Below, piece after piece: positions 6,375 through 58,572 of a stretch of 64,000 nt of DNA (positions within the stretch are counted from its first letter, which is position 1; each line of letters begins with the position of its first letter). The position numbers and the translations under genes are program-made. Source of the stretch: a virus. Taxonomy: Duplodnaviria; Caudoviricetes. Location: positions 1 through 64,000 of IMG/VR virus record IMGVR_UViG_2775506835_000006; one strand, given 5' to 3'. A model generated the notes under the pieces. The model was not told where the DNA came from and ran no database searches. It saw only the letters and a program-made list of their open reading frames with translations.

Positions 6375-6385
6375 ATGAAAGAGAT

Positions 6386-7034: not shown

Positions 7035-7049
7035 AGGGGGACCGGTGAA

Positions 7050-33075: not shown

Positions 33076-33843
33076 ATGGATATAAAAAAGGATCTTTTGA
33101 CAATTAATTCCTACAGCCGGCCCGGTACAAAGCTTAGCAAAGTTACCAAGATTGCAGTACACTACGTCGGCAATCCAGGAAGCACGGCACAGGCCAATCG
33201 GAACTATTTTGAATCGCTAAAGGAAGGAAAGTGCAACAGTAGCGGCCAGCTGATTTATGCATCATCCCACTATATCGTTGGATTGGATGGAGAGATTCTC
33301 CAGTGTATCCCGGAAATGGAGATCAGTTACGCGACGAACCAAGCCAACCTGTATAGCATCAGCATTGAGTGCTGCCACCCGGCGGCGGACGGCAAGTTTA
33401 CAGTGGCCACAGAACGGGCGCTGGTTGTCCTCTGCGCCGATCTCTGCCAGCGGTACAAGCTCGATCCTCTGAAAGATATCATTCGTCATTACGATGTGAC
33501 GAAAAAGGTGTGTCCAAAGTACTATGTTGATCATCCGGAGGCCTACGAGGATTTCAGGCAACGCGTGCGAAGCTTAATGGTTATTGAGATTGACACCACC
33601 ATGGACGTCGTACGGCGGCACGGAGACTGCTACACGGTAGCTATGAAATGTGTAGACAAGCCGGTGATCTATCCCGGCACAGAAAAGGTTGTGACGGTCT
33701 GCCCACCCTACCCCTACGGCGGCGGCTGGCGGGCGAATATCGTTGCGATAAACCAGGCAGGGAGCAGCACGGGGATTTATACGCGCCTTCCGGATCAGGA
33801 TAAGACGGACGGTGTACTGCGGTTTGAGTTTAAAATTACATAA
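33076..33843 (+). CDS. Endolysin, N-acetylmuramoyl-L-alanine amidase (Amidase_2)
   Basis: VHYVGN, SSHY, SIECC, RHYDVT.K.CP. Confidence 0.92.
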   Translation: MDIKKDLLTINSYSRPGTKLSKVTKIAVHYVGNPGSTAQANRNYFESLKEGKCNSSGQLIYASSHYIVGLDGEILQCIPEMEISYATNQANLYSISIECCHPAADGKFTVATERALVVLCADLCQRYKLDPLKDIIRHYDVTKKVCPKYYVDHPEAYEDFRQRVRSLMVIEIDTTMDVVRRHGDCYTVAMKCVDKPVIYPGTEKVVTVCPPYPYGGGWRANIVAINQAGSSTGIYTRLPDQDKTDGVLRFEFKIT

Positions 33844-33858
33844 TAGGAGGATGGACTT

Positions 33859-34347
33859 ATGAACGAACACACCATTATTGGAATCAAAGCAACTATTACT
33901 GCGGCCTGCGCCGCTATGTCTGCCTGGCTGGGTTGGTTTGGGTGGCTCGTCGTCGCTTGGGCTGCATGCATGGTCTTGGATTACCTCACCGGATCGGCGG
34001 CGGCATGCAGAGCCGGCGAATGGAGTAGCGCAATAGCAAGGGACGGACTGTGGCATAAAGCAGGAGCAATCGTTGCAGTCGCTGCATCTCTACTAACGGA
34101 TATTTTAGTTGGTTTGGTTGTCAATCACATTCCTGCTATTTCTCTGCCGTTTGCATACACAGTGCTCTTCTGCCCAGTTGTAATCGTGTGGTATATTTTA
34201 ACTGAATTAGGATCAATTGTCGAAAATGCCGGTAAGCTGGGCGCTCCCGTTCCGCCTTTTTTGGCGCGAGTAATTACCATTTGCAAGGGAAGCGTGGATG
34301 CTGCCGGAGATAAGATCTCAGAAGAAAAAGAGGATAAACAGGACTGA
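33859..34347 (+). CDS. Holin (phage holin 4_1-like)
   Basis: DYLTG..SS..G..K..E.GSI.EN..G.PVP. Confidence 0.9.
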   Translation: MNEHTIIGIKATITAACAAMSAWLGWFGWLVVAWAACMVLDYLTGSAAACRAGEWSSAIARDGLWHKAGAIVAVAASLLTDILVGLVVNHIPAISLPFAYTVLFCPVVIVWYILTELGSIVENAGKLGAPVPPFLARVITICKGSVDAAGDKISEEKEDKQD

Positions 34348-34354
34348 CAACAAC

Positions 34355-34388
34355 AGCGCCCTGCTTCGTGAGTGGAGCAGGGCGCTTT
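34355..34388 (+). terminator. Hairpin after holin (probable terminator, short T tail)
   Basis: AGCGCCCTGCTTC..GGAGCAGGGCGCT-TT. Confidence 0.6.
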
Positions 34389-34409
34389 CGTTATTTTGGG
34401 GGTATTCAT

Positions 34410-36398
34410 ATGATTACTTTAAATGACAAGTGGATATTATTAGGCAATTGGGGGGATACGGATCTCGGATATGCAGGCGAAAACGAGGTGCGTATCATGC
34501 ATATACAAATGCCCGAAGTTCTGTATAACGATTGGAGCATTGTTATAGACGTCAAATACGATAATACGAAAAAGAATATTTGGGCAACTGAAAAGAGCAT
34601 AGACAATGGGAAACTGATTCTGTCAACTGTGATCAGAAAGGAGTATATTCCAAAAGAAGGAAATATCCATATTCAGGTTCGTGCGTCAAGCTCTGATGGC
34701 AGAGTTAAAAAATCGTCCTTACTTACCCTAAACATTAAAGATAGCATTAATGCCCCGGATATGGTTCCATTGCCACTTCCATCCGAGTTCTATGAATACG
34801 AACAGAATGTCATAAGTGCAAAATCTGCGGCTGAAATTGCAGCAAGTCGTGCTGGACTATCTGAACAGTCTGCGGAAAACTCGGTAGCAGAATGTGAACG
34901 CATTCTTGAAGAGGTAAAGGACAATAACACTTGGCGTGAATATGGACAAACACCTTGCAAATTTAATTTATCATTATTTGGAGAAGTAAAGTTAAAATCA
35001 GAAGGAGAATGTTCATATTGTATCTATTCCGATACGGTTAAGGACATGGCGAGCCAAGAACGAAATTATTATGGCAGCATTACGGAAGACACCAGCCGTG
35101 GTTACTATGAGTTTACGTTGGGCAGCAAAGCAACTGCCTGGTATAATGTGTACTTCAAAATGACTTTCTCTAAACTGGAAATAGGGAAGGCGTACAAGAT
35201 TTATGTTGATACTACCGGGTTGCAGCCAGGCTCTACGACTGCAACCATGATGTATGGACAATTTCTTTTGGCTGAATTGATCAACGGTCAAAAGGGAAAT
35301 CAAATCATGGCGCCAACGCGTATATCTTCAGCAGGGCTACATGGATTCGAGTTTGTGCCAACGACTGCTGATATTATCTTGGAGTACTATCCGGGCAATG
35401 TATTAGCAGAACTTGTTGCAGGTTACCAGTTCCGTTTTCGTGATTTATATGTAAACCGATCGGGTAGCGGGGATGAGCACACACCTATTTATGAAAAGAG
35501 GGGCATATTTAATGGCGAGACTATAATACAGGATGCAGTTTCCGGTTTGAATCTTGAATCGGTTCCGGTTTGCACTGTATGGTATTCTAAAGCACAATCT
35601 AACGTTTATACAGTCAACGGTATTCGCCCGGACGATACCGGGAACGTACTGCTCCAGAAACCTCCTTTATCGAGGCTGGAGGGTAAGATACTGGCCTGCT
35701 TTGGAGACAGTATTACAGGGAATTTTCAGCCGCCGGTGGACTATCCTTCCGTAATTGCAAAGCTGACCGGTATGCAGGTATATAACTTTGGGGTGGGCGG
35801 CTGCCGGATGTCTCAGCACCCGGATCAGTATTATGACGCCTTTAGCATGTACCGGCTGGCAGACGCCGTAACTACTGGAAATTTTGCGTTACAGGAAGCG
35901 GCGGTGGGGCATACCGCAAATTATGCAGCCGACCGCGTGACATCATTAAAATCTATTGACTGGACAAAAGTGGACTATGTTACCATTCTATTTGGAACAA
36001 ACGATATTCAGGGAGGCGTGTCACTGGATATCGTAAATGATCCCAAAGATGTCACAACTTACCTGGGTGCTGCCCGGTACAGCCTGGAAGCGCTCTGGAA
36101 CCGCTATCCGAATCTGCGGGTTTTGCTTTTGACTCCCATTTATCGCTACTGGGATAATGAACGTATTGATAGCGATGAAAAAATGTTTGGAAACAGGCAC
36201 TTTTACGAATTTGGAAATGCGCTTCTTCAGTTGGCAAAGGATTACAAAACACCAGCGCTGGATTTATATTATACTTTGGGAATCAACAAATACAACCGGG
36301 GGCAGTATTTCTCAACTGGCGATGGGACACATCCAAATGATGCGGGCCGCGTGTTGTTGGGAGAAAAGGTCGCATGGAAGCTGCTGAGTGAGTTTTAA
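34410..36398 (+). CDS. Tail-associated protein: BppU-like N-terminus, C-terminal SGNH/GDSL hydrolase
   Basis: LGYAGEN N-terminal motif, VNGIRPDDTGNV, FGDSIT, GTND, DGTHPN. Confidence 0.88.
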   Translation: MITLNDKWILLGNWGDTDLGYAGENEVRIMHIQMPEVLYNDWSIVIDVKYDNTKKNIWATEKSIDNGKLILSTVIRKEYIPKEGNIHIQVRASSSDGRVKKSSLLTLNIKDSINAPDMVPLPLPSEFYEYEQNVISAKSAAEIAASRAGLSEQSAENSVAECERILEEVKDNNTWREYGQTPCKFNLSLFGEVKLKSEGECSYCIYSDTVKDMASQERNYYGSITEDTSRGYYEFTLGSKATAWYNVYFKMTFSKLEIGKAYKIYVDTTGLQPGSTTATMMYGQFLLAELINGQKGNQIMAPTRISSAGLHGFEFVPTTADIILEYYPGNVLAELVAGYQFRFRDLYVNRSGSGDEHTPIYEKRGIFNGETIIQDAVSGLNLESVPVCTVWYSKAQSNVYTVNGIRPDDTGNVLLQKPPLSRLEGKILACFGDSITGNFQPPVDYPSVIAKLTGMQVYNFGVGGCRMSQHPDQYYDAFSMYRLADAVTTGNFALQEAAVGHTANYAADRVTSLKSIDWTKVDYVTILFGTNDIQGGVSLDIVNDPKDVTTYLGAARYSLEALWNRYPNLRVLLLTPIYRYWDNERIDSDEKMFGNRHFYEFGNALLQLAKDYKTPALDLYYTLGINKYNRGQYFSTGDGTHPNDAGRVLLGEKVAWKLLSEF

Positions 36399-36573
36399 TG
36401 TCATAAATTACCTCTAGCCCCCGGTGAATGTGGCAGTCTCTTCATGGGGACAAAGCGCTCGACCTCTTTATTGCCAAAATTGCAGGTTAGGGGCTCTTTT
36501 ATATTTAATGACTATTACACAAAATCTTGATATAATAGGACACACCAAGATAAGTTTGGAAGGGAGTAGTGGT

Positions 36574-37158
36574 ATGTCTAATACTGGAAAATTGTTTGAA
36601 GACCTTGTGTACAATATAGTTGTAAGCCAAGTCAATAAGGGGCAATTTTTACTATCTGACCCTAATGTACGTGTTTGCAGGAATGCAAAATACTACTCGA
36701 AAGATAGAGAGGCAAATATTGAGTGCGAAATATCCGTAGAAAAATATCTAATAGATCCAAGTACTAACACTGATGTGCGACCGTCTATTATTGTAATTAT
36801 AGAATGCAAAGACTATTCAGGACCTATTCCAGTCAGTGATGTAGAAGAGTTTCATGCTAAGTTGCAGCAGATCGGTGCGGACAACACGAAAGGTATTATA
36901 ATTATAAGATCGGGATACTATCAAAAGAGTGCTTTAAAGTATGCGCTATCAAAAGGGATTACCTTAGCAAGGATAATGCCTGAAAATCAAGTGAGCTATA
37001 TTTTGTATAGAAGGGCAAACAGCTTTTCGAACGTTTTAGGTGCAAGCATGTTCCGAGCGCTCACTGAGCCGGGTTTTTGTTCAGATGATGGCGAGGAATT
37101 TTTTTCATTATCCGGAGAAAAGTGCTTATGTAGCCTTATTGATAATTTAATAAAATAA
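36574..37158 (+). CDS. Mrr-like PD-(D/E)XK restriction endonuclease
   Basis: GKLFE, IECKDY, V..VEEF..K. Confidence 0.75.
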   Translation: MSNTGKLFEDLVYNIVVSQVNKGQFLLSDPNVRVCRNAKYYSKDREANIECEISVEKYLIDPSTNTDVRPSIIVIIECKDYSGPIPVSDVEEFHAKLQQIGADNTKGIIIIRSGYYQKSALKYALSKGITLARIMPENQVSYILYRRANSFSNVLGASMFRALTEPGFCSDDGEEFFSLSGEKCLCSLIDNLIK

Positions 37159-37208
37159 ACAATTCTCCTGATCAGCTGTAACAGCCTATCAGGAGAATTG
37201 TTTATTTT
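37151..37208. terminator. Bidirectional terminator
   Basis: 21-bp perfect stem AAAATAAACAATTCTCCTGAT / ATCAGGAGAATTGTTTATTTT between convergent genes. Confidence 0.85.
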
Positions 37209-37329
37209 ACGTTATATTGAGTTTTAGTTGCCTTCCGCCCATAATTTCAAGGGTAGCTTCCGTATCCATAATCCACTGGTCTTTTTCTTTGCGCGACACG
37301 ATCACCGGAATGGGGGCCAGTTTTCCATT

Positions 37330-38694
37330 TTATAGGATGCTTTTTAAAAGTTCCACCGCACTTTCTTCGGTGGGATCGTTTGTACCAAGCTCCCCGCGAA
37401 AAGCACGGGAGAGGATAGATTTTTTAATGAGGTCAATGTTGTCAAGCATAGAACAGAGTTCCTTTGCCTTTTGCTCTTTGGCAAAGAAGTCGTCAAGGAT
37501 ACGGACGATTTCGGTTTGCTCAACTAAAGGAGGTAGATATAGGGGATATGTTTCCATGAAATCTTTTGGTACACGTTGTTGCCCCACTGCGCCGCTCATA
37601 ACTGCTTGTGCTTTATCCCTAAAAGTACGGTTACGTACAATGTAATATAAATATCGGTTATATAACTCTTTTTCGCACCTTAATACAAAAAATTCAGTTG
37701 ATCCATAGCCAATGTCGTTTATTAATTTACCAATTATGGCCGACTTTCCGTTCTCCATACAAGGAGTAATTTTCGCAAATACAACGTCACCTTCTGAAAA
37801 ATTTGTAAATCCAGTACGAACGTCTTTCAGCTTTCGCTTTTGCGGTGCCACTATTGCTCCGTGGATTTCGGACAATGAAGCCATTGGAAAAAAAGAGACA
37901 TCAAGACTGTCAGGCAGATCTTTTGTATTGGCTTTTTTGGGGTTGACAGTACAAACTTGGCGCAATTCAAATTTTTTCCATGTTTCTATATCCACATCGT
38001 TTTCCCTGCGCCATTTGGTAGTCAGCTCGCCAGTAAAGGCTTTATGGAGAATGGCGGCCTTACGGGTTTCAAAACTGTCTAGTGCTGCCTGTGCCTTTTC
38101 CTTGACCTCGTCCAGCTTGGAAAATAGTCTTTCGATACGGCCAACGATACGTTGTTGCTCGGCAAGGGGAGGTAGTGGTATAGGATAATTTTGAACGTAC
38201 TTTGGCTGTGCTCTCATCAAAGATCCACCAACACCAGATACATTTGAAAGCATAAATTCTCTAAAATACTTTGATTGGTAACACCACATTAAATAGTCTG
38301 GACTAATCTGGGGCGCACGAATTATAATCCATTCTGATGATGCCAAAAGAATATTTTCTGTATGCTTGGACACTTTCCATACGCGGTTAATTCGAGGATT
38401 GATTTTGCACAACAAAATATCGTTCTTCTCTACCAGTTGTTTCGTTGAGCCAATTTCGCTTCCATATACAATTTCAGGGGAATTTTCTGCACTGCTTGGA
38501 ACACTGTATAATTCAAATGTTGAATCTGGTGACTGTATTGGATTAATTGAAGTACCTCGATATTTATTTATTGCTACAACTCTCGTCCAACACCAATTCC
38601 CCGGCACAGGATATGGTTGCTCTGCCTCTGGCACCAACGCCTGTTCCAGCCGTTCCTCCAATGTGAGGTCATCTGCTTTTTTTGCTTTTGCCAT
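37330..38694 (-). CDS. hsdS: Type I RM specificity subunit
   Basis: Two TRDs with PLPPLAEQQRIV and LPPLVEQTEIV; AF.GEL repeats. Confidence 0.95.
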   Translation of the reverse strand: MAKAKKADDLTLEERLEQALVPEAEQPYPVPGNWCWTRVVAINKYRGTSINPIQSPDSTFELYSVPSSAENSPEIVYGSEIGSTKQLVEKNDILLCKINPRINRVWKVSKHTENILLASSEWIIIRAPQISPDYLMWCYQSKYFREFMLSNVSGVGGSLMRAQPKYVQNYPIPLPPLAEQQRIVGRIERLFSKLDEVKEKAQAALDSFETRKAAILHKAFTGELTTKWRRENDVDIETWKKFELRQVCTVNPKKANTKDLPDSLDVSFFPMASLSEIHGAIVAPQKRKLKDVRTGFTNFSEGDVVFAKITPCMENGKSAIIGKLINDIGYGSTEFFVLRCEKELYNRYLYYIVRNRTFRDKAQAVMSGAVGQQRVPKDFMETYPLYLPPLVEQTEIVRILDDFFAKEQKAKELCSMLDNIDLIKKSILSRAFRGELGTNDPTEESAVELLKSIL

Positions 38695-40109
38695 TACTCT
38701 ACCTCCAATGCTCGCAGCTCTTTCACCACGCTCATCAGAAGGTCAACGGCTTCTTCCAGCTGTGCAATGGCTTCTTCCGCACTGTCAGCAGGGTCGGGGA
38801 GGTCGTTATAGTCCAAAACGCTGTCGTCCCGAATCAAACCGAGATCAAGGCTGTTGCTCTTGGCGGCAATCTCCTCGCGCGTGAAACAGTTCCAGCGTTC
38901 ATCCTGTACCGTGTGACGGTCATCCGAGCGGTAAGCCGCCTCAAAGCTCGTAAAATGTTCCGTTTTTAGTGGATTTGTCTTGCCGAAGGAAGGCATATTG
39001 GTGCGCAAATCATAGAACCAGACCTCTTTTGTATTGCCCTTATCCGCCGCTCCGCGCGTGAAAAACAGCACATTGGTTTTTACGCCCTGCGCATAAAAAA
39101 TTCCGGTGGGCAGACGCAACACCGTATGCAGATTGCATTTTTCCATCAAGTCCTCACGGATCTTCTCTCCATCACCGTCGGCAAACAAGACGTTATCTGG
39201 TAGCACCACAGCGGCGCGCGATTTCCCATTTGGTTTCAAGCTTCGATAAATGTGTTGCAAGAAATTAAGCTGCTTATTGCTGGTGGGGTAGGTAAAGTCG
39301 TCACGGGTAGCTCGCTCACCGCCCTTCTTAGTACCGAAAGGCGGATTGGTCAGCACCACATCAAATCCGCTCATTTGCTTACCGAAGTTGGAGAGGGTAT
39401 CACCCAGCAAAATTTGTCCGTCAATATCATGGAGCATGGCGTTCATCAAAGCGAGACGGTGGGTTTCGTGCACCAGCTCACATCCGGTGAAGGCCGCTTC
39501 TCGCTGAAATTTGGCGGTATCGGCATCCAAATCGAAAAGCTGATCAGTGTGTTCTTTAATATAGCGGTCGGCGGCGATCATAAAGCCAAACGTGCCGCAG
39601 GCAGGGTCGTTGCATTTTTCTCCGGCCTGTGGGTCAACAAGGCGGGTCATTACATCGATCAGTACGCGAGGCGTAAAATACTGTCCGGCGCCAGACTTCT
39701 TTTCATTGGCATTCTTTTCAAGCAATCCTTCATAGAGATTGCCCAACCCCTCTTCCCGGGCGGAATACCAGTCCAGAGAATCGATGGTGGCAATGATTTT
39801 TTCAAGGTTTTTCGGTTCTTCGATGTTGGAGGAAGCCCCTTGGTAAATCTCCCGGACACGTCCGGTGCATTGCTCACCCAGGTGGTTAAGCAGTTCTTTG
39901 TAAAAATGTTTCAACTCCGTACCGCTTAAAGCAGTCAGTTTATTCCAGCGATAATCCTCTGGAATGTGCTCTTCGGTACCTGTTTCTTTTGCCATTTTTA
40001 AAAAAAGAATATACGTGAGTTCGGTGACATATTGGTGGTAGGTAATCCCATCATCCCGCAGTACGTTACATAAGTTCCATAGTTTTGATACGATTTCTTG
40101 GGTTGTCAT
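38694..40109 (-). CDS. hsdM: Type I RM methyltransferase (m6A)
   Basis: GQYFTPR, DPACGT, NPPF. Confidence 0.96.
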   Translation of the reverse strand: MTTQEIVSKLWNLCNVLRDDGITYHQYVTELTYILFLKMAKETGTEEHIPEDYRWNKLTALSGTELKHFYKELLNHLGEQCTGRVREIYQGASSNIEEPKNLEKIIATIDSLDWYSAREEGLGNLYEGLLEKNANEKKSGAGQYFTPRVLIDVMTRLVDPQAGEKCNDPACGTFGFMIAADRYIKEHTDQLFDLDADTAKFQREAAFTGCELVHETHRLALMNAMLHDIDGQILLGDTLSNFGKQMSGFDVVLTNPPFGTKKGGERATRDDFTYPTSNKQLNFLQHIYRSLKPNGKSRAAVVLPDNVLFADGDGEKIREDLMEKCNLHTVLRLPTGIFYAQGVKTNVLFFTRGAADKGNTKEVWFYDLRTNMPSFGKTNPLKTEHFTSFEAAYRSDDRHTVQDERWNCFTREEIAAKSNSLDLGLIRDDSVLDYNDLPDPADSAEEAIAQLEEAVDLLMSVVKELRALEVE

Positions 40110-43100
40110 GCAGTTTTTCCTCCGTCGTCGTATAGATATTCATTGAGTTCTATTACAATGCTCTCTAATTTATTATGAAACACTTTGTTTATCTTTGAAA
40201 AACCGCCCTGCGATTTGAAACGTCCGTCCTCGTCAAACACAGATATATTTAGAACAGATTCCTCCATTAGGTACTTTTCCATGCGACCAATCCAGCCCAT
40301 CTCCATTTTGGAAAAAGAGTGCGATTTTTTTAACCTGTCTACTGCGCGGCGAATGCGGGCTTCGTGGCTTAGAAGTGTGGAACCGATGGCATACCGGCGA
40401 ATCAAACTGATAATGTCCGCAGCAATTTCTTCGTTGGTAAGCTCAGAGAGCGCGGTATTCAGCTGCTGGGCAGTAAAGCCCTCCCGGTCTAATGAGAGCC
40501 GCAAAGTTTTAAGCGTGTCCCGTGTCAGCTCCTTAGGGCGGGTGCAGACGATGCTTAAAGCGGCAATCTCGTTCATGTTGTTTTTTACGTAGTCGGCAAA
40601 CGCATCCAGATAATCTTCTGGCTTGTTGCCTTTCCCATATCCGCGCTCATGGCTGATGAGGCGGTCTTCTTTGTCGGAAATCACTACGGGGCGGCGGCCA
40701 TTGGTGTGTATCTCATCCAATAGGGCAAAGAGCATGTCACCGTTTAAGAGGTGGGTTTTGGCATCTTCGGGGCTGCGTTCCAGCACGTCACCAATAAACT
40801 GTGTTGGGTCAAGCCCTCCGGACAAATCTATAAAGTGCTCCATTGCCTTTGCGTCCATATCGCGCTTTTTGCGCTGTATCTTGGCAAGTATCTGGTTGAT
40901 TTGATATTGGACCTGCTGTGGTTCCTACATCGTTTCCAGACCGTTCAGAAGTTGCTCAAAGGTAGCAGAGGGATTTACGACAACGGGTTTCATAGTATTC
41001 AGTTTGTCCAAGTCCTCATACACGCCCACCGCATCGTAAATCTCGAAATGGGTCTTATGTATATCCGGACAGAGACGGGTGGCACGCCCCAGCATCTGCT
41101 CGTACAGGATACGGGATTTTACCTTGCGCATAAACACAAGGCTTGTGATTTCCGGCACGTCGATACCGGTCGTCAATAAATCCACCGTCACAGCGATGCT
41201 GGGAAATCGTTCATTTTTAAAACGTTTGATTGCTTCCAGTACCTTTTTCTTGTTGCCGCCGCCCACACTGCCGGTGATTTTCATAATGGCGTCGTTATCG
41301 ACGCCGCGTTCAGTGTATAACTCTTTTAAGATCTTTACAATCAAATCCGCATGCTGGTCGTCCACGGCATAAATCAAGGTTTTACCTTGTTCCGGCGATT
41401 CAGGGTCGATATCTTGGGAAATTTCTTCCAGTATTGCTCGGTTAAACGGCTCGGTGATAACCTGTCGGTTAAATGTTTCTACATCAAACTGTAATTCGTC
41501 CTCAAGCGCATCGCTGTTGGTTATTTCACCTGTTACCGGATCGTAGATGGCCAATGTTTCGCCTTTGGTGTAGTGAATGCCATTTTTACTGAGGTCTGTT
41601 CCCAAAAGATGAGGCGCATCGTGATCCACCAAATAGCCTTCGATGACTGCTTCCCGGTAAGAATAGGTGAATACCGGACGGCCAAAAATCTCCGTTGTGT
41701 GCTTGGCAGGAGTTGCGGTAAGGGCGATCTTGACGGCATCAAAATAGTCAATTACCGTACGGTATTTACTGACATAATCCCGCTGGTCACGATACAAAAG
41801 TTCATCTTCACCCATTTCTTTATCCAATATGTAGCCACGGTGCGCTTCGTCAATGATAATTAGGTCATAATCCGTTACGGCGGGCATGCTTTCTTCATCG
41901 TTATACAGGAGGCGCTTGACCATTCCCTGTACGGTACTTATTTGAACGCGGGTTTCCGGATCTATGGATTTTTCATCCAGACCTTTAATGTTATATATGT
42001 CGTCCAGCGTCATCAATTCTTCCAGCTTAACTTCTTTGAAAACATCCTGCGCTTGTTCACCCAAGGCAGTTCGGTCGACCAAGAAAAGGATTCGACGGAA
42101 ACGCCCCGTTTTTAGGAAACGATAGATCATTCCTAAAATGGTTCTGGTTTTGCCGGTACCGGTTGCCATGGCGAGCAAAGCCGTGTTTTGTCCATCTATA
42201 ATTGCCTGTTCAACGGCACGGATTGCCTTTAGCTGGTATTCACGCAAATTCAGTCCGTCTTTATCACGCAATAAATCGTAGGGCGCTGCTTGGAGCGTTT
42301 GATTTGCGCTTGCAATGTCTTTTTTTAATAGTTCCATCATGCCGGAAGGGCTGATCCAGCCTTGCAACGCTCTGGGGGAATTTGACGGCTGACGCAGATC
42401 AAGAAACCATATACCGGACTTTGTTTCCAACTGCTTCAAATAGGGTCTGCCGTTGGTAGCAAATGTAAAGGGAACTTTGTAAGCTCCCCATGTGCCAATT
42501 AGATAATTTGTATCCTCTTCCCGGATGCAGCGGGGGTAATCCTTGCCTTGATAATCAATGACCGATGGAATGTCCTTGTGTTCGGCTTTGGCTTCAATGA
42601 TACCCACCAGTTTCGTGTCAATGAATAAGGCGTAATCGGCAAATCCCTTCGCTCCCAGTTTTGATTTTGTTGGCCACTCGGCAATGGCAAGGTTCCGCCC
42701 CTTCGTCGGGCGGGTCCCCTTGGAATAACGAAGATGGATTGTATCTGCCTCCCAGCCAACTTTCCGCAATTGTTCATCTATTAAATATCTTGTTTCGGCC
42801 TCTGATTTTTGCCGCTGGCTGGCAGCCTTGCTGGCGCGTGCCTTACGATCAGTTTGAGAAACCGACGGGGCAGAAGCCGCTTGCGCTTCGGCTTGTTTTA
42901 GCAGCAATTTTTCTTGCTCGTCTATGGTTTTGGTGTCCGGGAGATTTGTTTCCGGCGCTTGCCGCGGCAACGTAAAAGGCTGATTTTGATAATTCCAATC
43001 GCCGTAAGTTTGCATAAACCATTCGCAAAGGCTGTGCGCCATTTGCAACAGGGTCTTTCCGTCTTCGATAGACGCATAGTTTTCATGTACCGCACGGTTG

Positions 43101-43369
43101 CGTGCTTTTCGCAAAGCGTGAAGAACATCTATGATATCTCGTGTAAGTAAGCCTTCGTTACTTAAACGGTTAATGCGGGCAATGGCTGTATTTTCTGTAG
43201 GTAATGATATTTTATCGTAGGTGAACATAAGGTTTGCAATTGTTTCGCCTACCATTCCCAGCTTCATCAGGCAGGAATTAGGATCTGAATAAAGATAGGC
43301 TTCTGCTGTTTTCCCCAGCTGAGATAAAACTGGAAACTCCTGATCCATAAAGCTGAAATTACTTCCCAT
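40106..43369 (-). pseudogene. hsdR: Type I RM restriction subunit interrupted by in-frame TAG at 40927-40925
   Basis: ADY..EAK, ATGTGKT, DEAHR, QMLGRATR; ..ETM*EPQQ.. continues in frame into the 250-aa ORF (1087 codons in total). Confidence 0.9.
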
Positions 43370-43874
43370 CTTTTAATCCTCCTCTAAAAGATTGAATAAT
43401 CCATTTACTAGCTTTTAAGTATTGCATGAAATAACCCATATTTTCCCCAACGGGCGGCCCCTGAAATTTTTATGTACTCACGTGAAATCTGAACTTAGCA
43501 CATAGTAAGTTGCCATGGCTCTGTCAGTCCCTTTGCAGTAACATAATCCTAGAGATATCACCATATTCCACCATTTTCTTCATTATAATTCATTAATGCG
43601 AGCAATACAAGCAGAGTATGGAAAAGCTGTCAAAGACAAAACCTCGGTGGCCATTTGTAGCCTCAAGAGATTAATCAAATAGGGTGTTTTCTGCTACCAT
43701 AAATGTACCGAAAAACAATCCGATATCAAGCGATAAATGCGATTTAAAAAAATGATAAAATAATTGCTTATGATAAAAATATTTGGTATAGTTAATACAA
43801 AGATTATTTAAAGATTTACGTTTTAATGAGTAAGCATTTATTAAGTTATCTGGCAGGGAAATCAACAGAATGAG

Positions 43875-46800
43875 GTGGCAATTGTGGGGCAAGGGAAAGA
43901 GAATATTTATCTGCGCATAGAAATGATGACGGTGGTCAATTATGCACTGCAGCAAAATTCTGTGCCGGTAATCCAGGAAATTAAAATTGAAAACGCTACA
44001 AAACAAGACATTACTGATGTTACAATTCAGGTACAAAGCAGTCCAGCTATTGTATGTCCTTTTGCTTTAAATATAGCTGCGCTTTCAGCAGGAGAATCTT
44101 ATTCTATTAGGGAGCCTTCGCTTGTATTAGACGGCGCGTATTTAGCGGGATTAACAGAGCGTATCAACGTAATATTGCAAATTTTTGTAAAAAAAGAGTC
44201 AAATACTTTAGCTTCCTTTGAAAGGTCTCTGACAGTTCTGGCTTTTGACGAGTGGCCGGGAATAACGGTTCTCCCGGAACTCCTGACTGCATTTATCTTA
44301 CCAAACCATTCGGAAGTAGTACAAATAAATGCGAAAGCGGCAAAATTTTTGGAACAGTGGAGTGGAGATCCTTCCTTAGATGCATATCAGTCTCGCGACC
44401 CCAACCGAGCCCGGTTGCAGGCAGCCGCCATATACGGTGCTTTGCAGGCGCAAAATATTGTATATTCGGTTCCGCCAGCCAGTTTTGAAGCAATTGGCCA
44501 ACGTATACGATTATGCGATGCTGTTATGCAGCAAAAGATGGGGACCTGTATGGACTTAACGTTACTCTATGCCGCCTGTTTGGAGGCCGCTGGATTGCAT
44601 CCGTTGCTTCTATTGCAGCCGGGCCATATTTTTGCAGGCGTATGGTTGGAGGACTTAACGTTTCCGGAGGCAATACAGGATGATCCTTCTCTAATAACAA
44701 AGCGTTTGGCGGACGGTGTCAACGAAATTGCTGTTGTGGAATGTACCGCGTTTACAGCTGGCAAAGGGTTAAGCTTTGAACAGGCATCTTCTGCTGCGGA
44801 ACAGAAACTGACGGGAGGGTCGTTGGACTGCCTGATTGATGTTTTTCGTGCAAGATTAAGTGGAATTCACCCTCTACCTTTGCGCGTTTTGGATGGAAAT
44901 CAATGGACGATTGCTCGTGATGAAGTAGATATTGAAAAGATTACAAAGGCTCCTGCGTCAAAGATCGAAACCGTTCGCGTTTTGGAAGGCCATCCAGAGA
45001 ATGCTGGAAAAATGGCGCAGTGGGAACGAAAATTGCTTGACTTAGGAATGCGGAATACATTGCTAAATCTCCGTCTTACGCGAACGGTTATTCCAATTCT
45101 GTCTCCGTCTCTCCGCGATTTAGTGGAGGCACTGGTGGATCGAGGCGAATTTGGTATTGCGTCGCGTCCGGATGAATGGTCTGTCCGTGAGGAAGATCAA
45201 AAGGATCCGGAAAAGCTCGTGTGTACAAGCAATATACATCATTTAATTAAGTGTGAATTTCATAATATGCGATTGCGTACGTCTCTCAGCGAAGGGGAAT
45301 TGGCCCGGTCTGTCATCCATTTATACCGTTCCGCTAGAACCGCTTTGGAGGAAAACGGGGCAAATACGCTGTATTTAGCCATAGGTTTGCTGCGATGGTA
45401 TGAAACGAAAACAAGTCAAACAGCGAGATATGCGCCGGTCGTGTTGTTGCCAGTGGAGATTGTCCGGAAATCTGCCTTGAAAGGCTATGTAATCCGCTCC
45501 CGAAGTGATGAGGAACCACAGATAAACGTTACACTTTTGGAGAAGCTCAAACAAGATTTTGAAATTACCATTAGCGGGTTGGACCCATTGCCGCAGGATG
45601 AAAACGGCTTAGATATTCGGCTTATTTTGGTCAGGATGCGTAGGGCAATTATGGATCAACGCGGATGGGATGTTCTGGAAACAGCAGTTCTTGGAGTTTT
45701 CTCTTTTTCCCAGTTTGTAATGTGGAATGATATACGTAATCGTGCGGAAGATTTGCAAAAAAATAGACTTGTGCGCAGTTTAATGGATGGAAAACTGGCG
45801 TGGATGCCACCGGCAATGCAATTGGGAGCATGCGTTCCGGAAGAAGGTGTTTTGTTGCCTATTCCAGCGGATGCATCCCAGCTTTATGCTATCGAAGCGG
45901 CGGCCCGTGGAGAGAGTTTTGTATTGCATGGCCCGCCAGGCACAGGCAAATCCCAGACAATTACGGCCATGATAGCCAATGCGGTTGCACAGGGTAAGAC
46001 GGTTCTTTTTGTTGCAGAAAAAATGGCGGCTCTATCGGTTGTACAGCGCCGGTTAGAAGAAATAGGCATTGGACCGTTTTGCTTGGAATTACATTCTAAT
46101 AAGTCTCAAAAGCATGCTGTATTGGAGCAACTGCGTATGGCAACAGAAATCGCCAATCGAAATGAATCCGCGAACTATAAAGAACAAGCGGAGCAAGCAG
46201 CGCAAATGCGTAAGGAGTTGGATGCGTACGCGCGTTCTCTACATCAAAAGAGAGCGTCGGGCCTATCTCTTTTTGAGATGATCAGTGGCTATGAAAAATG
46301 CCGGCTTGCGCCGGATACCGTTCATTTCTCCGATGAATTTGCCTTTTCAGCTAATTGCTCTGTGTTGGCTAAGTATAAACTGTTGATTGGTCAGCTTATC
46401 GCTGCTGGCAAGGCGATTGGACATCCATATGGAAACCCGTTGCGTTTGATTCCTTTATCCGTTTATACGCAGCAGTTGCACTTCGGTTTGCCTAACGCGC
46501 TGATTTCTTACCGATCTGCTTTAGAGCAGCTTGAAGAGGCAGGGACGCAGTTTTCAGAAGCTTTGGATCGGAAGGTACCGGATAGTTTGGAAGAGTGGAA
46601 ACAACTTTATCAGATAGCCGAAGCGTTAATGAAATGGATTTTCATTCCAAGAGCTTGGGCAAAGGATGAAACCTTTTCTTATTCCATGCAGAAGATGAGA
46701 GAAATGTCACGGCATTACCAAAAGGCACGCGAACTTTCCGATGATTTAAACGGTTCGTGGAACAAAGAGTTTTTAAAACAAGATGGCGAAGCTTTACTTA

Positions 46801-49667
46801 CACAATGGCGGCAAATTTCTAGTCAATGGTTTTTAACAAAGGCGTTAGGTCAAAACAAAATAGAGAGTCAACTTTCGCCGTTTGCCCGCAGAATTGTAAA
46901 TAAAACGTTGTTGGAACGGGACCTAGAACGATTGGTCAATTATCAAAAGGAGCAGTCTGCTGCCAATGAGTTGTTTACGTTCTATAAAGAGTATTTGGAG
47001 CCAGTTTTTAAGGGCGAAGATACGGACTGGAAACAACTCGAAACACAAATTGAACAGGCATTGCACGATGCGTCTGAGTTAGCTGAATTGACTGGTGGAG
47101 AGGAAATGCGTCTCCGTTTTGCTGCCCGAAAAGAACTTCAGGGCACAATCGGGCAAATGATAGAATCTTATTCTGTTATGCAAGACGCCAAATCCTCGCT
47201 GTACTCCCTGCTGGAGGTATATGACGGAGAATGGGGGCCAGCTGATTGGTTACATGGGCAATTGCAATTTTGTAATCAGATGGAAAAACATATTGAGATG
47301 CTGCGTGATTGGATTTTATGGAATCGCACCTGCCAGGAAATAGAAAAAGAGGGACTTGGACCGTTGGTGAGAGCTTATGAAAATGGGCTGGAACATGAAA
47401 ATGTTGAAAGTGCTTGTTTTCGAGGCATTTATAAAGCGTTAATTGAGCATACCATTGACGAGGATCCTGCACTGTTGCGGTTTTCCGGCGCGATGTTCAA
47501 TGAAAAGATTCAGCAATTTAAACAAATGGATCAAAAATTGCAGAAATTGGCGAAGGTTGAAATATACAACCAATTGACAGCCAAGATGCCTCATTTTGAG
47601 CTGGAGGCAGTGCAAAGTTCGGAAGTGGGTATACTGCAAAGAGCCATTCGCAGTGGTGGCCGAGGAATCAGTATCCGACGGTTGTTTGAACAAATTCCTG
47701 AACTTTTGACTAGATTGTGTCCCTGCATGCTTATGAGTCCTATTTCAGCGGCGCAATACTTGAATCCGAAATGTAAGCCTTTTGATATTGTGGTGTTTGA
47801 CGAAGCTTCTCAAATGCCAACTTGCAAAGCAGTAGGAGCGATCGCCAGGGGGAAGAGTGCGGTGATTGTGGGTGATCCCAAACAGATGCCACCGACCAGT
47901 TTTTTCTCCGGCAATACAGTAGATGAAGATAATTTACAGCAAGAAGATTTGGAAAGCATTCTGGATGATTGCCTGGCGATCCAATTGCCGCAGGCGTATT
48001 TGCTCTGGCACTATCGAAGCCATCATGAAAGCCTGATCTCTTTTAGTAATAGTCAATTTTATGAGAACAAACTTTATACGTTTCCATCGGCGGATGATTT
48101 GGCATCCAAAGTTTCGTTAGTGCATGTAGAAGGCTTTTTTGATCGGGGAAAAACAAGACAAAATAAAGCAGAAGCGAAAGCGGTCATCCATGAGTTACAA
48201 AGGCGTTGCCACAATCCAGTTTTTGCAAACCAGAGTGTGGGCGTTGTAACGTTTAATATAACACAACAGAGTCTGATCGAAGATCTTTTGACAGATGCTT
48301 GTAAAGAAGATGCGGATTTAGAAGATTGGGCATACAACCGGCCTGAGCCACTGTTTATAAAAAATCTGGAGAATGTACAGGGTGATGAGCGGGACGTTGT
48401 ATTGTTTTCTGTGGGATATGGTCCTGATGAGCAAGGCCGTATTACTATGAATTTTGGACCGCTCAATCGGGACGGCGGTTGGTGCAGGTTAAACGTAGCT
48501 GTTTCCCGAGCGCGGGAAGAAATGATAGTGTTTTCTACTATCACTGCGGAGCAGATCAATTTATCCAGGTGCGGCGGGGCAGGTGTAGCTGCCTTAAAAG
48601 CATTTTTAAGGTATGCCAACGGTGAGCGAATCGCGGAACAAAAAGAGACAGGACAGGAGCATACGATTCGTAATGGGATTGCGGACATGCTTTGTTGTAA
48701 GCTGACCGATGAGGGATATGAAACCCGGACAATGATTGGCCGTTCCGACTTTCGGATAGATGTAGGTGTTGTGGATCCAAGTCAGCCGAAACAATATTTG
48801 CTGGGTATTTTGTTAGACGGCCCTATGTACGGCGCAGCTAAAACAACGCGTGACCGTGAAATTGCTCGAGCGGATGTATTAAAAAAGCTGGGGTGGGAGC
48901 TTCATCGCATTTGGTCAATAGATTGGTGGATCAACAGTCAAAAAGAATTTGATCGTTTACTGGAACATATAAAGCAAACCGTTGAGAGTCGTAAAAAGCT
49001 CCAAGCGGATCCAGAGTACAACCTGTCCGTTAAATCAAGTAAGCGCTTGGTGGCAGATAGCTGCGCGCAGTATGCACCATGTGTCCAGGAATCATGTATT
49101 TTACTTTATGAAGCCGCCTCGTTGGCGAAAGAGACGCTCTCTTCCGACGCTTTTTTATTGCCGCAGTATGATAATCGAATTAAAGAGGCGTTTGAACAAG
49201 TCCTGAGTGTAGAGGCTCCTATTAGAGAAAGTTTACTAATCCGGCGCGTTCTGCAAAGTTTTGGATTTGGAAGGACTGGCGCCCGGCTGCAGGAACGGGC
49301 AGAGATTTTGTTGAAGCAGATGGGTCTTTCCTATACAATGCAGCGAGGCGAAAAATTTTACTGGCGCAATGACCAGAACCCCGATACATATTCAGAATTC
49401 CGTCAATCTGGTATAGGAAATCACAAGCGAGACGCGCAGGATCTACCTGTAGAAGAAGTGTCGAATGCGGTTTGCAGGGTTTTGCAGGATAAGGTTGGTC
49501 TGCAAAAAGAGGACCTTATTCGTGAAACTGCAAGGCTGCTAGGCTATGCGAGATCGGGTAATGTTGTCGTTGAAGTTGTGACCTACGGAATAAAACATGC
49601 CTTAAAGACAAGTAAAATACTTGTAGACGACACAGCCCATTTGTATAACTTAAAACAAAATAGATAA
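43875..49667 (+). CDS. DUF4011 / SF1 helicase / Vsr-like nuclease / DUF3320 protein (Hhe-like anti-phage)
   Basis: WERKLLDL..RN.LLN, GPPGTGKS, DEASQ, VQGDERD, RLNVAVSRAR, RIWS.DWW. Confidence 0.85.
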   Translation: MAIVGQGKENIYLRIEMMTVVNYALQQNSVPVIQEIKIENATKQDITDVTIQVQSSPAIVCPFALNIAALSAGESYSIREPSLVLDGAYLAGLTERINVILQIFVKKESNTLASFERSLTVLAFDEWPGITVLPELLTAFILPNHSEVVQINAKAAKFLEQWSGDPSLDAYQSRDPNRARLQAAAIYGALQAQNIVYSVPPASFEAIGQRIRLCDAVMQQKMGTCMDLTLLYAACLEAAGLHPLLLLQPGHIFAGVWLEDLTFPEAIQDDPSLITKRLADGVNEIAVVECTAFTAGKGLSFEQASSAAEQKLTGGSLDCLIDVFRARLSGIHPLPLRVLDGNQWTIARDEVDIEKITKAPASKIETVRVLEGHPENAGKMAQWERKLLDLGMRNTLLNLRLTRTVIPILSPSLRDLVEALVDRGEFGIASRPDEWSVREEDQKDPEKLVCTSNIHHLIKCEFHNMRLRTSLSEGELARSVIHLYRSARTALEENGANTLYLAIGLLRWYETKTSQTARYAPVVLLPVEIVRKSALKGYVIRSRSDEEPQINVTLLEKLKQDFEITISGLDPLPQDENGLDIRLILVRMRRAIMDQRGWDVLETAVLGVFSFSQFVMWNDIRNRAEDLQKNRLVRSLMDGKLAWMPPAMQLGACVPEEGVLLPIPADASQLYAIEAAARGESFVLHGPPGTGKSQTITAMIANAVAQGKTVLFVAEKMAALSVVQRRLEEIGIGPFCLELHSNKSQKHAVLEQLRMATEIANRNESANYKEQAEQAAQMRKELDAYARSLHQKRASGLSLFEMISGYEKCRLAPDTVHFSDEFAFSANCSVLAKYKLLIGQLIAAGKAIGHPYGNPLRLIPLSVYTQQLHFGLPNALISYRSALEQLEEAGTQFSEALDRKVPDSLEEWKQLYQIAEALMKWIFIPRAWAKDETFSYSMQKMREMSRHYQKARELSDDLNGSWNKEFLKQDGEALLTQWRQISSQWFLTKALGQNKIESQLSPFARRIVNKTLLERDLERLVNYQKEQSAANELFTFYKEYLEPVFKGEDTDWKQLETQIEQALHDASELAELTGGEEMRLRFAARKELQGTIGQMIESYSVMQDAKSSLYSLLEVYDGEWGPADWLHGQLQFCNQMEKHIEMLRDWILWNRTCQEIEKEGLGPLVRAYENGLEHENVESACFRGIYKALIEHTIDEDPALLRFSGAMFNEKIQQFKQMDQKLQKLAKVEIYNQLTAKMPHFELEAVQSSEVGILQRAIRSGGRGISIRRLFEQIPELLTRLCPCMLMSPISAAQYLNPKCKPFDIVVFDEASQMPTCKAVGAIARGKSAVIVGDPKQMPPTSFFSGNTVDEDNLQQEDLESILDDCLAIQLPQAYLLWHYRSHHESLISFSNSQFYENKLYTFPSADDLASKVSLVHVEGFFDRGKTRQNKAEAKAVIHELQRRCHNPVFANQSVGVVTFNITQQSLIEDLLTDACKEDADLEDWAYNRPEPLFIKNLENVQGDERDVVLFSVGYGPDEQGRITMNFGPLNRDGGWCRLNVAVSRAREEMIVFSTITAEQINLSRCGGAGVAALKAFLRYANGERIAEQKETGQEHTIRNGIADMLCCKLTDEGYETRTMIGRSDFRIDVGVVDPSQPKQYLLGILLDGPMYGAAKTTRDREIARADVLKKLGWELHRIWSIDWWINSQKEFDRLLEHIKQTVESRKKLQADPEYNLSVKSSKRLVADSCAQYAPCVQESCILLYEAASLAKETLSSDAFLLPQYDNRIKEAFEQVLSVEAPIRESLLIRRVLQSFGFGRTGARLQERAEILLKQMGLSYTMQRGEKFYWRNDQNPDTYSEFRQSGIGNHKRDAQDLPVEEVSNAVCRVLQDKVGLQKEDLIRETARLLGYARSGNVVVEVVTYGIKHALKTSKILVDDTAHLYNLKQNR

Positions 49668-49745
49668 TTATCTTGCAGTTCGTTCTCACTTTATTCTTTA
49701 TCTTTTACTGAAGATATTGCATAGGGCCTACATTGAATCATCATT

Positions 49746-49848
49746 CTAAGGAAGTAAGCCGGTCAACTGGCACAAGGATTCAAATCCCTTTACCCTCCGA
49801 CAAAAGCCGCATGGTTAAGCCGTTTTCGGACAACCATGCGACTTTTTT
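49746..49848 (+). repeat. Degenerate att relic (tRNA-Ser 3' end plus terminator)
   Basis: Mismatched copy of 50173-50276. Confidence 0.8.
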
Positions 49849-50106
49849 ATTGCTTTCAGGCAGGTTCAACAAAAACAGCGCGAAGCTATCCGGAAATGGA
49901 TAGTTGCGCCACGATTGACAGATTCCAGTTTCGGGTGCAAAATATTTTATAATGTAAAGAAAATCTAATCGAACTCATCTAAAATATCGAGGAGTTCAGA
50001 ACCATGCAGTGATGGGGAGAAGATCGTCGGGAAGCTTCTGAGCGAGTGTAATGGCAAAAATAAAAGCGCAGCTATTCATTGCGGACGGCTGTATTAAAAT
50101 TTTAGC

Positions 50107-50127
50107 CATTCCCACTCTATTCCCACT
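50107..50127 (+). repeat. Putative integrase arm sites (left of core)
   Basis: ATTCCCACT x2 with 11-bp period. Confidence 0.55.
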
Positions 50128-50166
50128 TTATGTTCAAAGTATTGCATAAAGCCACAAAATAAATCA

Positions 50167-50228
50167 CCCCTGCTAAGGGAGTAGGTCGGGCAACTGGCGC
50201 AAGGGTTCAAATCCCTTCTTCTCCGCCA
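50167..50228 (+). other. att core: 3' portion of tRNA-Ser(GCT), not a complete tRNA
   Basis: CCC-CTGCTAA-GGGAG, long variable arm, GGTTCAAATCC, CTCCGCCA; 5' acceptor strand and D-arm absent. Confidence 0.9.
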
Positions 50229-50276
50229 AAAGCCGCATGGTTAAGCCGTTTTTCGGACAACCATGCGGCTTTTTTG
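50228..50276. terminator. Terminator after att / end of int2
   Basis: AAAAGCCGCATGGTT..AACCATGCGGCTTTTTT. Confidence 0.85.
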
Positions 50277-50325
50277 TTATGCAAAAGTACGCGGTTTGTG
50301 GCACTGCCGCGTGCAAAAAATGAAG

Positions 50326-54164: not shown

Positions 54165-54386
54165 GTGAACAAAGACAGTCCATACATAAAGCACAGCCGT
54201 CTGGGCGTGATCTTGTTTGTTACCGGCCTGATCGGGGCCTTCCTCACAGCCATGGCGTCGGACAGCGGAATGCTGACCGTCTACCAAGTGTTGATTATGA
54301 CAACGGCAGAGAGTTTGGCTATGGGGATTGGCGGGTTGCTGCGTGATAAAGATTCACAGAATGGAGGTCGAGAAAAACAAAAATGA
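54165..54386 (+). CDS. Small two-TM membrane protein
   Basis: Homolog of 4474-4695. Confidence 0.7.
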   Translation: MNKDSPYIKHSRLGVILFVTGLIGAFLTAMASDSGMLTVYQVLIMTTAESLAMGIGGLLRDKDSQNGGREKQK

Positions 54387-55498: not shown

Positions 55499-55505
55499 CG
55501 AAGAC

Positions 55506-55769
55506 TTGAGATTGCGAGAATATCCATTGGGGAACCGCAATATTGTAGGTGCCCGTGTTACGGAAGCACGCCGCCGTGTGAACATGCCTCAAAGAGTCTT
55601 ACTTGCAAAAATGCAGGTCAAAGGCATAGAACTGAACACATCCGGTTTATCCAAATTGGAAGGGCAGCACCGGTATGTTATGGATTTTGAACTTGCGGCG
55701 CTGGCTGATGTTTTGGATGTAAAAGTGGATTGGCTCCTTGGAAGAGACGACTACATAAAGGGGAAGTAG
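55506..55769 (+). CDS. XRE-family HTH protein
   Basis: Two substitutions versus 5815-6078. Confidence 0.85.
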   Translation: MRLREYPLGNRNIVGARVTEARRRVNMPQRVLLAKMQVKGIELNTSGLSKLEGQHRYVMDFELAALADVLDVKVDWLLGRDDYIKGK

Positions 55770-55771
55770 AA

Positions 55772-56065: not shown

Positions 56066-56076
56066 ATGGTAGAGAT

Positions 56077-56725: not shown

Positions 56726-56739
56726 GGGGGACCGGTGAA

Positions 56740-58566: not shown

Positions 58567-58572
58567 AAAAAG

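Follow-up and report, generated by a model that had tools for sequence, protein, structure and literature searches.

The closest described counterparts of the locus reported here are the virus-borne mini-arrays of the Sulfolobales portogloboviruses SPV1 and SPV2. These clustered regularly interspaced short palindromic repeat (CRISPR) arrays are described as having a leader, repeats of the host type and no cas genes, with spacers against related viruses (Medvedeva et al., 2019, PMC6858448). Work on virus-borne mini-arrays has so far centered on archaeal viruses and type I systems. The locus we analyzed is a bacterial example. It is a five-spacer array in the second of two neighboring prophages (prophages 1 and 2) within the first 64,000 nucleotides of the IMG/VR record IMGVR_UViG_2775506835_000006, a stretch that we refer to as the window and that corresponds to positions 429882-493881 of contig C11 in genome G000. 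The leader-distal spacer, spacer 5, partly matches an SGNH esterase gene of prophage 1, and an initial annotation of the window took this to point to conflict between the two prophages. We place a probability of roughly 60% on a different explanation, namely that spacer 5 is the memory of a phage gene family rather than of prophage 1 and that the phage-borne array borrows the type III-A immunity of its host. What is of interest is less the match to prophage 1 than the whole arrangement.

The array lies at 58205-58572 on the + strand and consists of six 33-nt repeats, the last of which is degenerate, and five spacers of 33-35 nt. The spacers, all on the + strand, are found at 58238-58272 (spacer 1), 58306-58339 (spacer 2), 58373-58405 (spacer 3), 58439-58472 (spacer 4), and 58506-58539 (spacer 5). 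The repeat is identical to the type III-A repeat of the host at 32 of 33 positions, and the single difference, at repeat position 8, is outside the hairpin and the 8-nt tag. Both of these elements are identical between phage and host repeats and are intact in five of the six phage repeats. The array is preceded by a 167-nt leader (58038-58204, +) that is 77-82% identical to two host leaders, and all three leaders have a sigma-70-like promoter in common. In the phage leader this promoter (58166-58195) agrees with the consensus at 11 of 12 positions and ends 10 nt before repeat 1. Directly 3' of the degenerate last repeat is a hairpin of 15 pairs (58573-58609), scored on the - strand and T-rich on both sides, that is likely to be the array terminator. 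Judged from this near-consensus promoter and the hairpin after the last repeat, the array looks expressible.

The position of the array is between the replication-associated gene of prophage 2 (57133-57936, +), which is the last gene of the early block, and the small terminase gene (59492-60013, +). It lies in a 1.4-kb variable stretch bounded by blocks that are common to both prophages. The left block is at 4475-8192 in prophage 1 and 54166-57888 in prophage 2 (94% identity), so that 3.7 kb of the prophage 2 early block is shared at this level, and the right block is at 9825-10007 and 59299-59481, respectively (83% identity). Because this variable slot is flanked by blocks conserved in both prophages, the array is part of the phage and not of the chromosome, in agreement with the initial annotation, which had placed it inside prophage 2. 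The gene order of prophage 2 is integrase, early block, array, a 141-residue protein, terminase, portal and further late genes past the window; the open reading frame at the position of the large terminase (60006-61370, +) has no Pfam match. Prophage 2 ends with endolysin, holin and an SGNH gene of its own (690 residues, C11:509364-511397).

A type III system had been proposed from the window, and a complete Csm locus with a repeat that differs by 1 nt is present just past prophage 2. About 50 nt after the stop codon of the prophage 2 SGNH gene, directly past a terminator hairpin that also occurs 3' of several other SGNH paralogs, there is a single CRISPR repeat with a leader on the - strand. 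This is followed on the + strand by cas10/csm1, csm2, csm3, csm4, csm5, and cas6. After cas6 is the gene of a NucC homolog of 299 residues (L027:9049-9948, equal to C11:518048-518947; PADLOC E 3e-72, Pfam DUF6602), and then come a 13-repeat array on the - strand, its leader, ssrA, and smpB. Csm1, Csm3, Csm4, and Csm5 were recognized as NCBIfam equivalogs above cut-off, as was the Csm2 domain, whereas Cas6 is below its curated cut-off and has support from Pfam. Cas10 retains GGDD. No HD motif was found in the first 170 residues of this protein, where the family alignments start at protein residue 38 and model position 62. We infer that this Cas10 is HD-less and signals to NucC.

The solitary repeat has a full leader and promoter (C11:511449-511650, window-equivalent 81568-81769, - strand), lies between the last terminator of prophage 2 and cas10, and points away from cas10. 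It looks like the remainder of an upstream array of which a single repeat is left. The distal end of this repeat is joined to the phage terminator, and there is no tRNA-Ser attachment (att) copy on that side. A search of window-equivalent positions 60001-100000 revealed no right-hand att copy for prophage 2. There are also no cas genes between the integrase and the SGNH gene of prophage 2, and from the SGNH stop codon to the start of the Csm-NucC locus there are about 50 nt, with no att copy in between. In G173, a genome from another species of the same genus, the distance from the tRNA-Ser cluster to ssrA is about 5.4 kb, and the stretch lacks a Csm locus, although an SGNH remnant and an att copy are present there. 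It follows that the Csm-NucC locus is accessory DNA between the phage integration site and ssrA. It may be cargo of prophage 2 or a separate island that a deletion brought next to it. The host type III-A array contains two adjacent identical spacers (C11:519202-519340), that is, a duplicated spacer-repeat unit, which is consistent with recombination rather than active adaptation.

Compared with SPV1 and SPV2, the locus has several features in common. The array is in a viral genome, has a host-like leader with a promoter and repeats that match those of the host, and no cas genes were recognized from the phage integrase to the SGNH gene. Its spacers show likeness to genes of related viruses, and the site in the carrier itself differs by point mutations, here with 27 of 34 positions identical (PMC6858448). 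The locus differs from the SPV1 and SPV2 arrays as described in that the carrier is a temperate phage of a bacterium instead of an archaeal virus and that the cognate system here belongs to type III-A (Csm) and is accompanied by NucC (PMC6858448). In addition, no protospacer with 100% identity was found in a sibling virus here; the matches are at the level of the gene family (24-30 of 34), and reciprocal targeting was not seen.

Mini-arrays of bacterial phages and prophages are likewise reported as short prophage arrays with a cognate CRISPR-Cas system in the host and with partial spacer matches (PMC6858448; Shmakov et al., 2023, bioRxiv 10.1101/2023.03.03.530964). However, the bacteriophage mini-arrays known at the time of the former account are described there without leaders (PMC6858448), whereas this array has both a leader and a promoter. 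The type I and type V-A mini-arrays described in the latter are aimed at cas promoters (bioRxiv 10.1101/2023.03.03.530964); by contrast, this array is of type III and its spacers of nameable origin come from phage late genes. A second parallel is the work of Goldberg et al. (2018, PMC5754349), in which a type III-A spacer imperfectly matches late genes of resident prophages in a polylysogen. The spacers in that work were engineered and in a host array (PMC5754349), whereas here they are carried by a prophage and one of them has eight partial targets. The effector locus itself resembles the Cmr-NucC system of Gruschow et al. (2021, PMC8682760) in its Cas10, which appears to lack HD here, in the NucC gene beside the effector genes, in the lack of adjacent adaptation genes and in its association with a prophage. 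It is unlike that system in its subtype (III-A, Csm), in having its own Cas6 and repeat type, and in the extra array inside the phage gene set (PMC8682760). The locus is a clean bacterial type III-A case, with a leader, an adjoining cognate effector locus coupled to NucC and, as detailed below, eight natural targets of graded similarity.

In its reverse complement, spacer 5 gives an ungapped alignment with 35983-36016 on the + strand in which 26 of 34 positions are identical, exactly as first annotated. The nine remaining combinations of spacer and strand reached best scores of 19-21 within the window. The peptides TIFYGTNDIQGG and TILFGTNDIQGG are the correct translations of the alignment between target and spacer 5. 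Five of the eight mismatches, at target positions 5, 14, 17, 20, and 32, are synonymous third-position changes, and the other three, at positions 6, 8, and 10, fall in two altered codons. The match is in coding phase, and the translations and synonymous changes are as the initial annotation gave them. The transcribed strand of spacer 5 is complementary to the sense strand of the target gene (34368-36398, +), and with the promoter and leader of the array on the + strand the CRISPR RNA (crRNA) would pair with the mRNA, in the orientation proposed before. The 3' flank of the target forms two Watson-Crick pairs and one wobble pair with the 8 nt of the tag, and it is not an anti-tag, which also bears out the earlier description.

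The gene at 34368-36398 encodes a protein of 676 residues, is the last late gene of prophage 1 and starts about 20 nt after the holin gene. An SGNH/GDSL hydrolase domain makes up the C-terminal part of the protein (residues 443-667; Pfam PF13472, E 4e-16, and PF00657, above cut-off), and three GDSL proteins in the PDB match it. The translation shows all three of the GDS, GxND, and DxxH motifs, and the partial protospacer spans the GxND motif of SGNH block III. We take these blocks to provide the catalytic Ser (GDS), the oxyanion Asn (GxND), and the Asp/His pair (DxxH). The gene is preceded by the lysis cassette of prophage 1 on the + strand (33076-34347), with an amidase endolysin (33076-33843) and the holin (33859-34347).

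A search at the protein level showed that the genome has eight full-length SGNH paralogs with 54-62% amino acid identity, together with four partial matches. A holin homolog, an endolysin homolog, or both are encoded upstream of seven of the eight, and the SGNH gene with the lysis genes is thus a module common to the resident prophages. Spacer 5 is antisense to the mRNA of all eight paralogs, with 24-30 of 34 positions identical. The highest score is with a copy on C11 near 22380 (30/34), followed by a copy on C12 near 173403 (28/34) and the SGNH gene of prophage 2 itself (27/34). The prophage 1 gene is joint fourth of the eight at 26/34, the same score as a copy on C12 near 557905, and lower scores were obtained with copies on C12 near 133537 (25/34) and on C11 near 651223 and near 136186 (24/34 each). 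There are therefore seven further paralogs outside the window that match the spacer, and four of these score at least as high as prophage 1. The paralogs compared with each other in the same 34-nt stretch are identical at 21-32 positions, with a mean of 25.2. Because the scores of the spacer with the paralogs equal those among the paralogs, spacer 5 looks like a ninth member of the family. By this comparison, the match to prophage 1 appears to be the background likeness that any member of the SGNH family has to the spacer. These data support one part of the initial annotation, that spacer 5 derives from a homolog in a related phage, since the match is one of homology, in coding phase and antisense. 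They do not support the idea that the spacer is aimed specifically at the neighboring prophage at the same att site, since all eight paralogs match and the copy of the carrier matches better. The initial annotation had also considered that the perfect match might be in the downstream genes of prophage 2; the SGNH gene found there does match better than that of prophage 1, but the match is not perfect. A partial spacer match should be checked against all paralogs in the genome before conflict with a neighboring prophage is inferred.

Spacer 2 is the other spacer of nameable origin. Read on the complementary strand, it encodes a conserved large-terminase motif, which means that its crRNA would be antisense as well. 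This 11-residue motif occurs in more than 116 IMG/VR contigs, and the best nucleotide match among the 80 loci scored was 31 of 34. In a search of the phage collection, spacer 2 matched seven records with large-terminase genes, the best at 33 of 37 positions in a stretch that runs slightly past the spacer. In a scan of the genome, no resident terminase reached 24/34. Both spacers of nameable origin thus come from conserved stretches of phage late genes, and each is antisense. Across the 43 spacers in the six arrays of the genome, spacer 5 is the only one with multi-copy self matches. We also considered a codon-phase design, in which wobble positions of the target would coincide with flipped-out positions of the crRNA, and rejected it because it fits spacer 5 and fails for spacer 2.

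The following sequence of events would account for these observations. Spacer 5 would have been taken from the GxND block III region of an SGNH late gene in a phage that is absent from this genome. Prophage 2, by carrying a five-spacer mini-array with its own promoter and leader between its early and terminase genes, could supply guides to the host Cas6 and Csm proteins, encoded with NucC directly past the prophage, which would process the crRNAs and load them. By the mechanism proposed for virus-borne mini-arrays, prophage 2 would then borrow the type III-A immunity of the host against competing phages with matching late transcripts. Prophage 1, with eight mismatches of which one is at +3, would most likely not be targeted, and the same would apply to the copy in prophage 2, which has the same +3 mismatch.

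Several observations weigh against this explanation. The array has five spacers, whereas the published definition of a mini-array specifies one or two (PMC6858448). Spacers 1, 3, and 4 are without an identified target. No perfect or near-perfect protospacer for spacer 5 was found in exact and pattern scans of viral, genome and metagenome sequences, and the supposed source phage is unobserved. The exact 34-mer had no match in either the viral or the genome collection, the 23-nt exact core had none in metagenomes, and a codon-degenerate pattern had one viral match and no genome or metagenome matches. The viral match (L005) has 28 of 34 positions identical and is the same at this site as the C12 copy in the genome itself. 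The hunt for a perfect protospacer in related phages that had been suggested earlier therefore yielded none, the best resident copy having 30/34; as exact or pattern scans, these would overlook a source that departs from the spacer by one or two non-synonymous changes beyond the core. Relatives of the carrier are likewise lacking in IMG/VR, where the pattern of the phage repeat had no matches, and so no array-carrying relative of prophage 2, and where neither Cas10 nor the 141-residue protein downstream of the array had relatives. There is no cas1 or cas2 adjoining the Csm locus, and the sole Cas1 in the genome is on another contig (C12:233667-234533). With no adjacent cas1 and cas2, it is hard to account for spacer acquisition by the array, which may be static. 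Lastly, the mismatch tolerances discussed below come from systems of other species and vary widely, so weak activity on prophage 1 is possible.

How the eight sites might be recognized depends on the pattern of mismatches. In type III effectors the duplex is described as a series of 5-bp segments in which every sixth base is flipped out, with segment 1 the most important for activation of Cas10, and in the Cmr-NucC system of V. metoecus a single mismatch at +1 or +3 nearly abolished NucC signaling (Gruschow et al., 2021, PMC8682760). In the S. aureus type III-A system, targeting upon induction was kept with up to six mismatches and could not be detected at eight or above, although tolerance across contexts is given as three to ten (Goldberg et al., 2018, PMC5754349). 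We numbered crRNA positions from the tag. The prophage 1 site has mismatches at 3, 15, 18, 21, 25, 27, and 29 and a G:U pair at 30, and the site in the prophage 2 copy has mismatches at 3, 6, 21, 25, 27, and 29 and a G:U pair at 30. These are the only two of the eight copies with a mismatch in segment 1, at +3. The 30/34 and 28/34 copies have four and six mismatches, respectively, and a perfect segment 1; when every sixth position is discounted, three and two effective mismatches are left. Measured against the published tolerances, the sites in prophages 1 and 2 are probably the least likely of the eight to be recognized, and targeting of prophage 1 appears unlikely. The 30/34 and 28/34 copies seem to be within the range of mismatches that is tolerated.

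This pattern raises the possibility that spacer 5 polices other resident prophages. When the prophages with the 30/34 copy (C11 near 22380) or the 28/34 copy (C12 near 173403) are induced, their late transcripts would activate Csm-NucC and the cell would be killed or arrested, with prophages 1 and 2 spared by the +3 mismatch. This is compatible with the memory of a gene family that we favor and adds a resident target to it. The mismatch counts of the two copies and their perfect segment 1 are in line with it, as is the targeting kept in S. aureus with up to six mismatches. Type III-A targeting needs transcription, so repressed prophages are tolerated, and late genes that are repressed in lysogeny would be tolerated conditionally; mismatched spacers against resident prophages have been proposed to persist in polylysogens (PMC5754349). 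However, the C12 copy has a flank in which six of eight positions pair with the tag, which could damp activation of Cas10, and the tolerance figures were obtained in other species. We therefore consider such policing possible but doubtful.

A more extended version can be drawn up in which the leader-equipped type III-A mini-array of a temperate phage programs the adjoining HD-less Csm-NucC system, perhaps its own cargo, against conserved catalytic motifs of late genes (terminase and SGNH esterase), and in which, in a host where eight prophages have the esterase module in common, cells are killed where better-matching siblings induce while prophages 2 and 1 are exempt through the shared +3 mismatch. 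The Csm-NucC locus would perhaps be phage cargo, given that the last prophage terminator and the first CRISPR repeat are fused and that the right-hand att copy is missing. Taken as a whole, this scenario is speculative and we think it rather improbable. With its eight graded targets (24-30/34), the locus is a test bed for the number and position of mismatches that Csm-NucC tolerates, and it could show whether prophages turn borrowed CRISPR guides on each other.

The array could also be an inert relic, that is, a type III array fragment, leader included, that was acquired by recombination from an earlier host and is decaying, with old spacers that no longer have a function. The missing cas1 and cas2 at the Csm locus agree with this, as do the leader-distal position of spacer 5, the extra substitution in the repeats around spacers 4 and 5, the lack of a perfect target for any spacer in the scans, the only 77-82% identity of the phage leader to the host leaders, and the collapse of the upstream host array itself to a single repeat. 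By contrast, the promoter agrees with the consensus at 11 of 12 positions, five of six repeats keep hairpin and tag, and a terminator follows. Moreover, both spacers of identifiable origin (two of two, a small number) are antisense to late-gene mRNAs, as type III systems need. On balance, an inert relic is conceivable but unlikely, and we prefer the explanation in which the array serves prophage 2 with borrowed immunity.

The proposal of the initial annotation, in which spacer 5 acts on prophage 1 in particular, describes tandem prophages in conflict at tRNA-Ser with an outcome of either escape or silencing of the SGNH mRNA through a partial match. The antisense match is real, its flank is not an anti-tag and pairing is unbroken over crRNA positions 4-14. 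Mismatches are tolerated by type III systems, with as many as ten allowed in some cases (PMC5754349), and regulatory spacers with partial matches have been described in other CRISPR types (bioRxiv 10.1101/2023.03.03.530964). However, the prophage 1 gene ranks below the gene of the carrier and its score is that of the family background. Escape is not supported, because the protospacer stretch ranks 165th of 726 in conservation along the SGNH domain, which is above average, and without local hyper-divergence there is no sign of escape. Silencing is not supported either. The mismatch at +3, shared with the copy of the carrier, is in the segment most critical for Cas10 activation (PMC8682760) and targeting with eight mismatches went undetected in the S. 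aureus series (PMC5754349), so in these two benchmark systems targeting would be abolished or nearly so. In addition, the survey of regulatory mini-arrays reports no enrichment of repeat-like elements between type III cas genes (bioRxiv 10.1101/2023.03.03.530964). Specific action on prophage 1 thus seems very unlikely to us.

Another explanation is that the array is a decoy, with a strong promoter that floods Cas6 and Csm with phage crRNAs and dilutes the guides of the host, an RNA anti-CRISPR effect that would protect prophage 2 and its kin. RNA anti-CRISPRs are phage-borne solitary repeat units without functional guide content that block complex formation. The array here has five regular spacers, well formed and from phage genes, and the only solitary repeat seen is outside the window beside cas10. 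The promoter is strong, and phage mini-arrays have been proposed to abrogate CRISPR immunity (bioRxiv 10.1101/2023.03.03.530964). However, when the 43 spacers in the six arrays were compared with the prophages at a threshold of at least 78%, only spacer 5 and one unrelated match of 26/33 were recovered, and with no host spacer matching the prophages there is nothing obvious to dilute. We regard a decoy as highly improbable. Finally, chance as the source of the likeness between spacer 5 and prophage 1 can for practical purposes be dismissed, since only the short length of the sequence speaks for it, whereas 2000 shuffled versions of spacer 5, run against both strands in the test proposed with the initial annotation, never reached 26 (maximum 24, seen three times), and the match is in coding phase and recurs in eight paralogs.

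Some further features of the SGNH protein and its surroundings were noted. The C-terminal part of the prophage 1 protein also matches PHROG families annotated as tail fibre, and the N-terminal 425 residues resemble the baseplate protein BppU with a protein atlas score of 0.90, which serves as a lead only. Prophages 1 and 2 are colinear, with the order early block, terminase, lysis genes, and SGNH gene. For this reason we rejected an inversion between the opposite copies of leader and repeat (58038-58237 on the + strand and the solitary copy beside cas10 on the - strand).

The prophage 1 integrase gene (1-1173, -) adjoins tRNA-Ser(GCT), which is just left of the window, and the prophage 2 integrase gene (50353-51447, -) encodes a protein with 53% amino acid identity to that of prophage 1. 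A copy of the 3' part of tRNA-Ser(GCT) with a terminator (49715-49851, +) represents the right-end att copy of the unit formed by prophage 1 and a defence island, and a second 3' copy (50140-50278, +) is the att site left of the prophage 2 integrase gene. We considered whether these two fragments are pieces of tmRNA and rejected this; the real ssrA shares nothing with them, and a weak Rfam tmRNA match at 50016-50228 of the window (19.8 bits, where the gathering score is 47) is accounted for by the tRNA-Ser 3' copy. Between the two att copies is a remnant of the 3' end of an SGNH gene (approximately 50002-50080), and such a remnant is likewise found beside the tRNA-Ser att copy in G173. Because SGNH 3'-end remnants adjoin att copies in both genomes, this shows that prophages ending in an SGNH gene have repeatedly integrated and decayed at the tRNA-Ser site.

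The defence island (36424-49667) is between the prophage 1 SGNH gene and the first att copy, inside the unit bounded by att. It contains a Mrr-like nuclease gene, type I restriction-modification genes (hsdS, hsdM, and a split R gene with an EcoEI_R_C piece), and the gene for the anti-phage protein ProA, a protein of 1930 residues that is an NCBIfam equivalog with 2079 bits.

In a search of 201 genomes of the family with the leader and first repeat, four genomes including this one matched, and the matches in the other three were short and weak (E 1.6e-5 to 2.4e-4); the only other genome of the genus had no match. The host array had no match in the phage collection. Three other arrays have related repeats ending in ATTGAAAT (C9:380913-381409, C11:122263-122497, and C12:1062870-1063438), and their spacers gave no match to either prophage at the 78% threshold or above. 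A candidate at C12:745600-746300 is not a CRISPR array and was set aside as a tandem repeat of about 103 nt in about six copies. Directly downstream of the 30/34 SGNH copy, which belongs to another resident prophage, there is a gene for a Cas12f/Cas12-U4-like protein of 509 residues (C11:22941-24470, or L003:10942-12471; PADLOC E 3e-13 and 5e-13, with a weak OrfB_IS605 match). It is followed by a nine-repeat array (C11:24668-25236, or L003:12669-13237). The gene and the array together look like a miniature type V CRISPR-Cas system at a prophage end.

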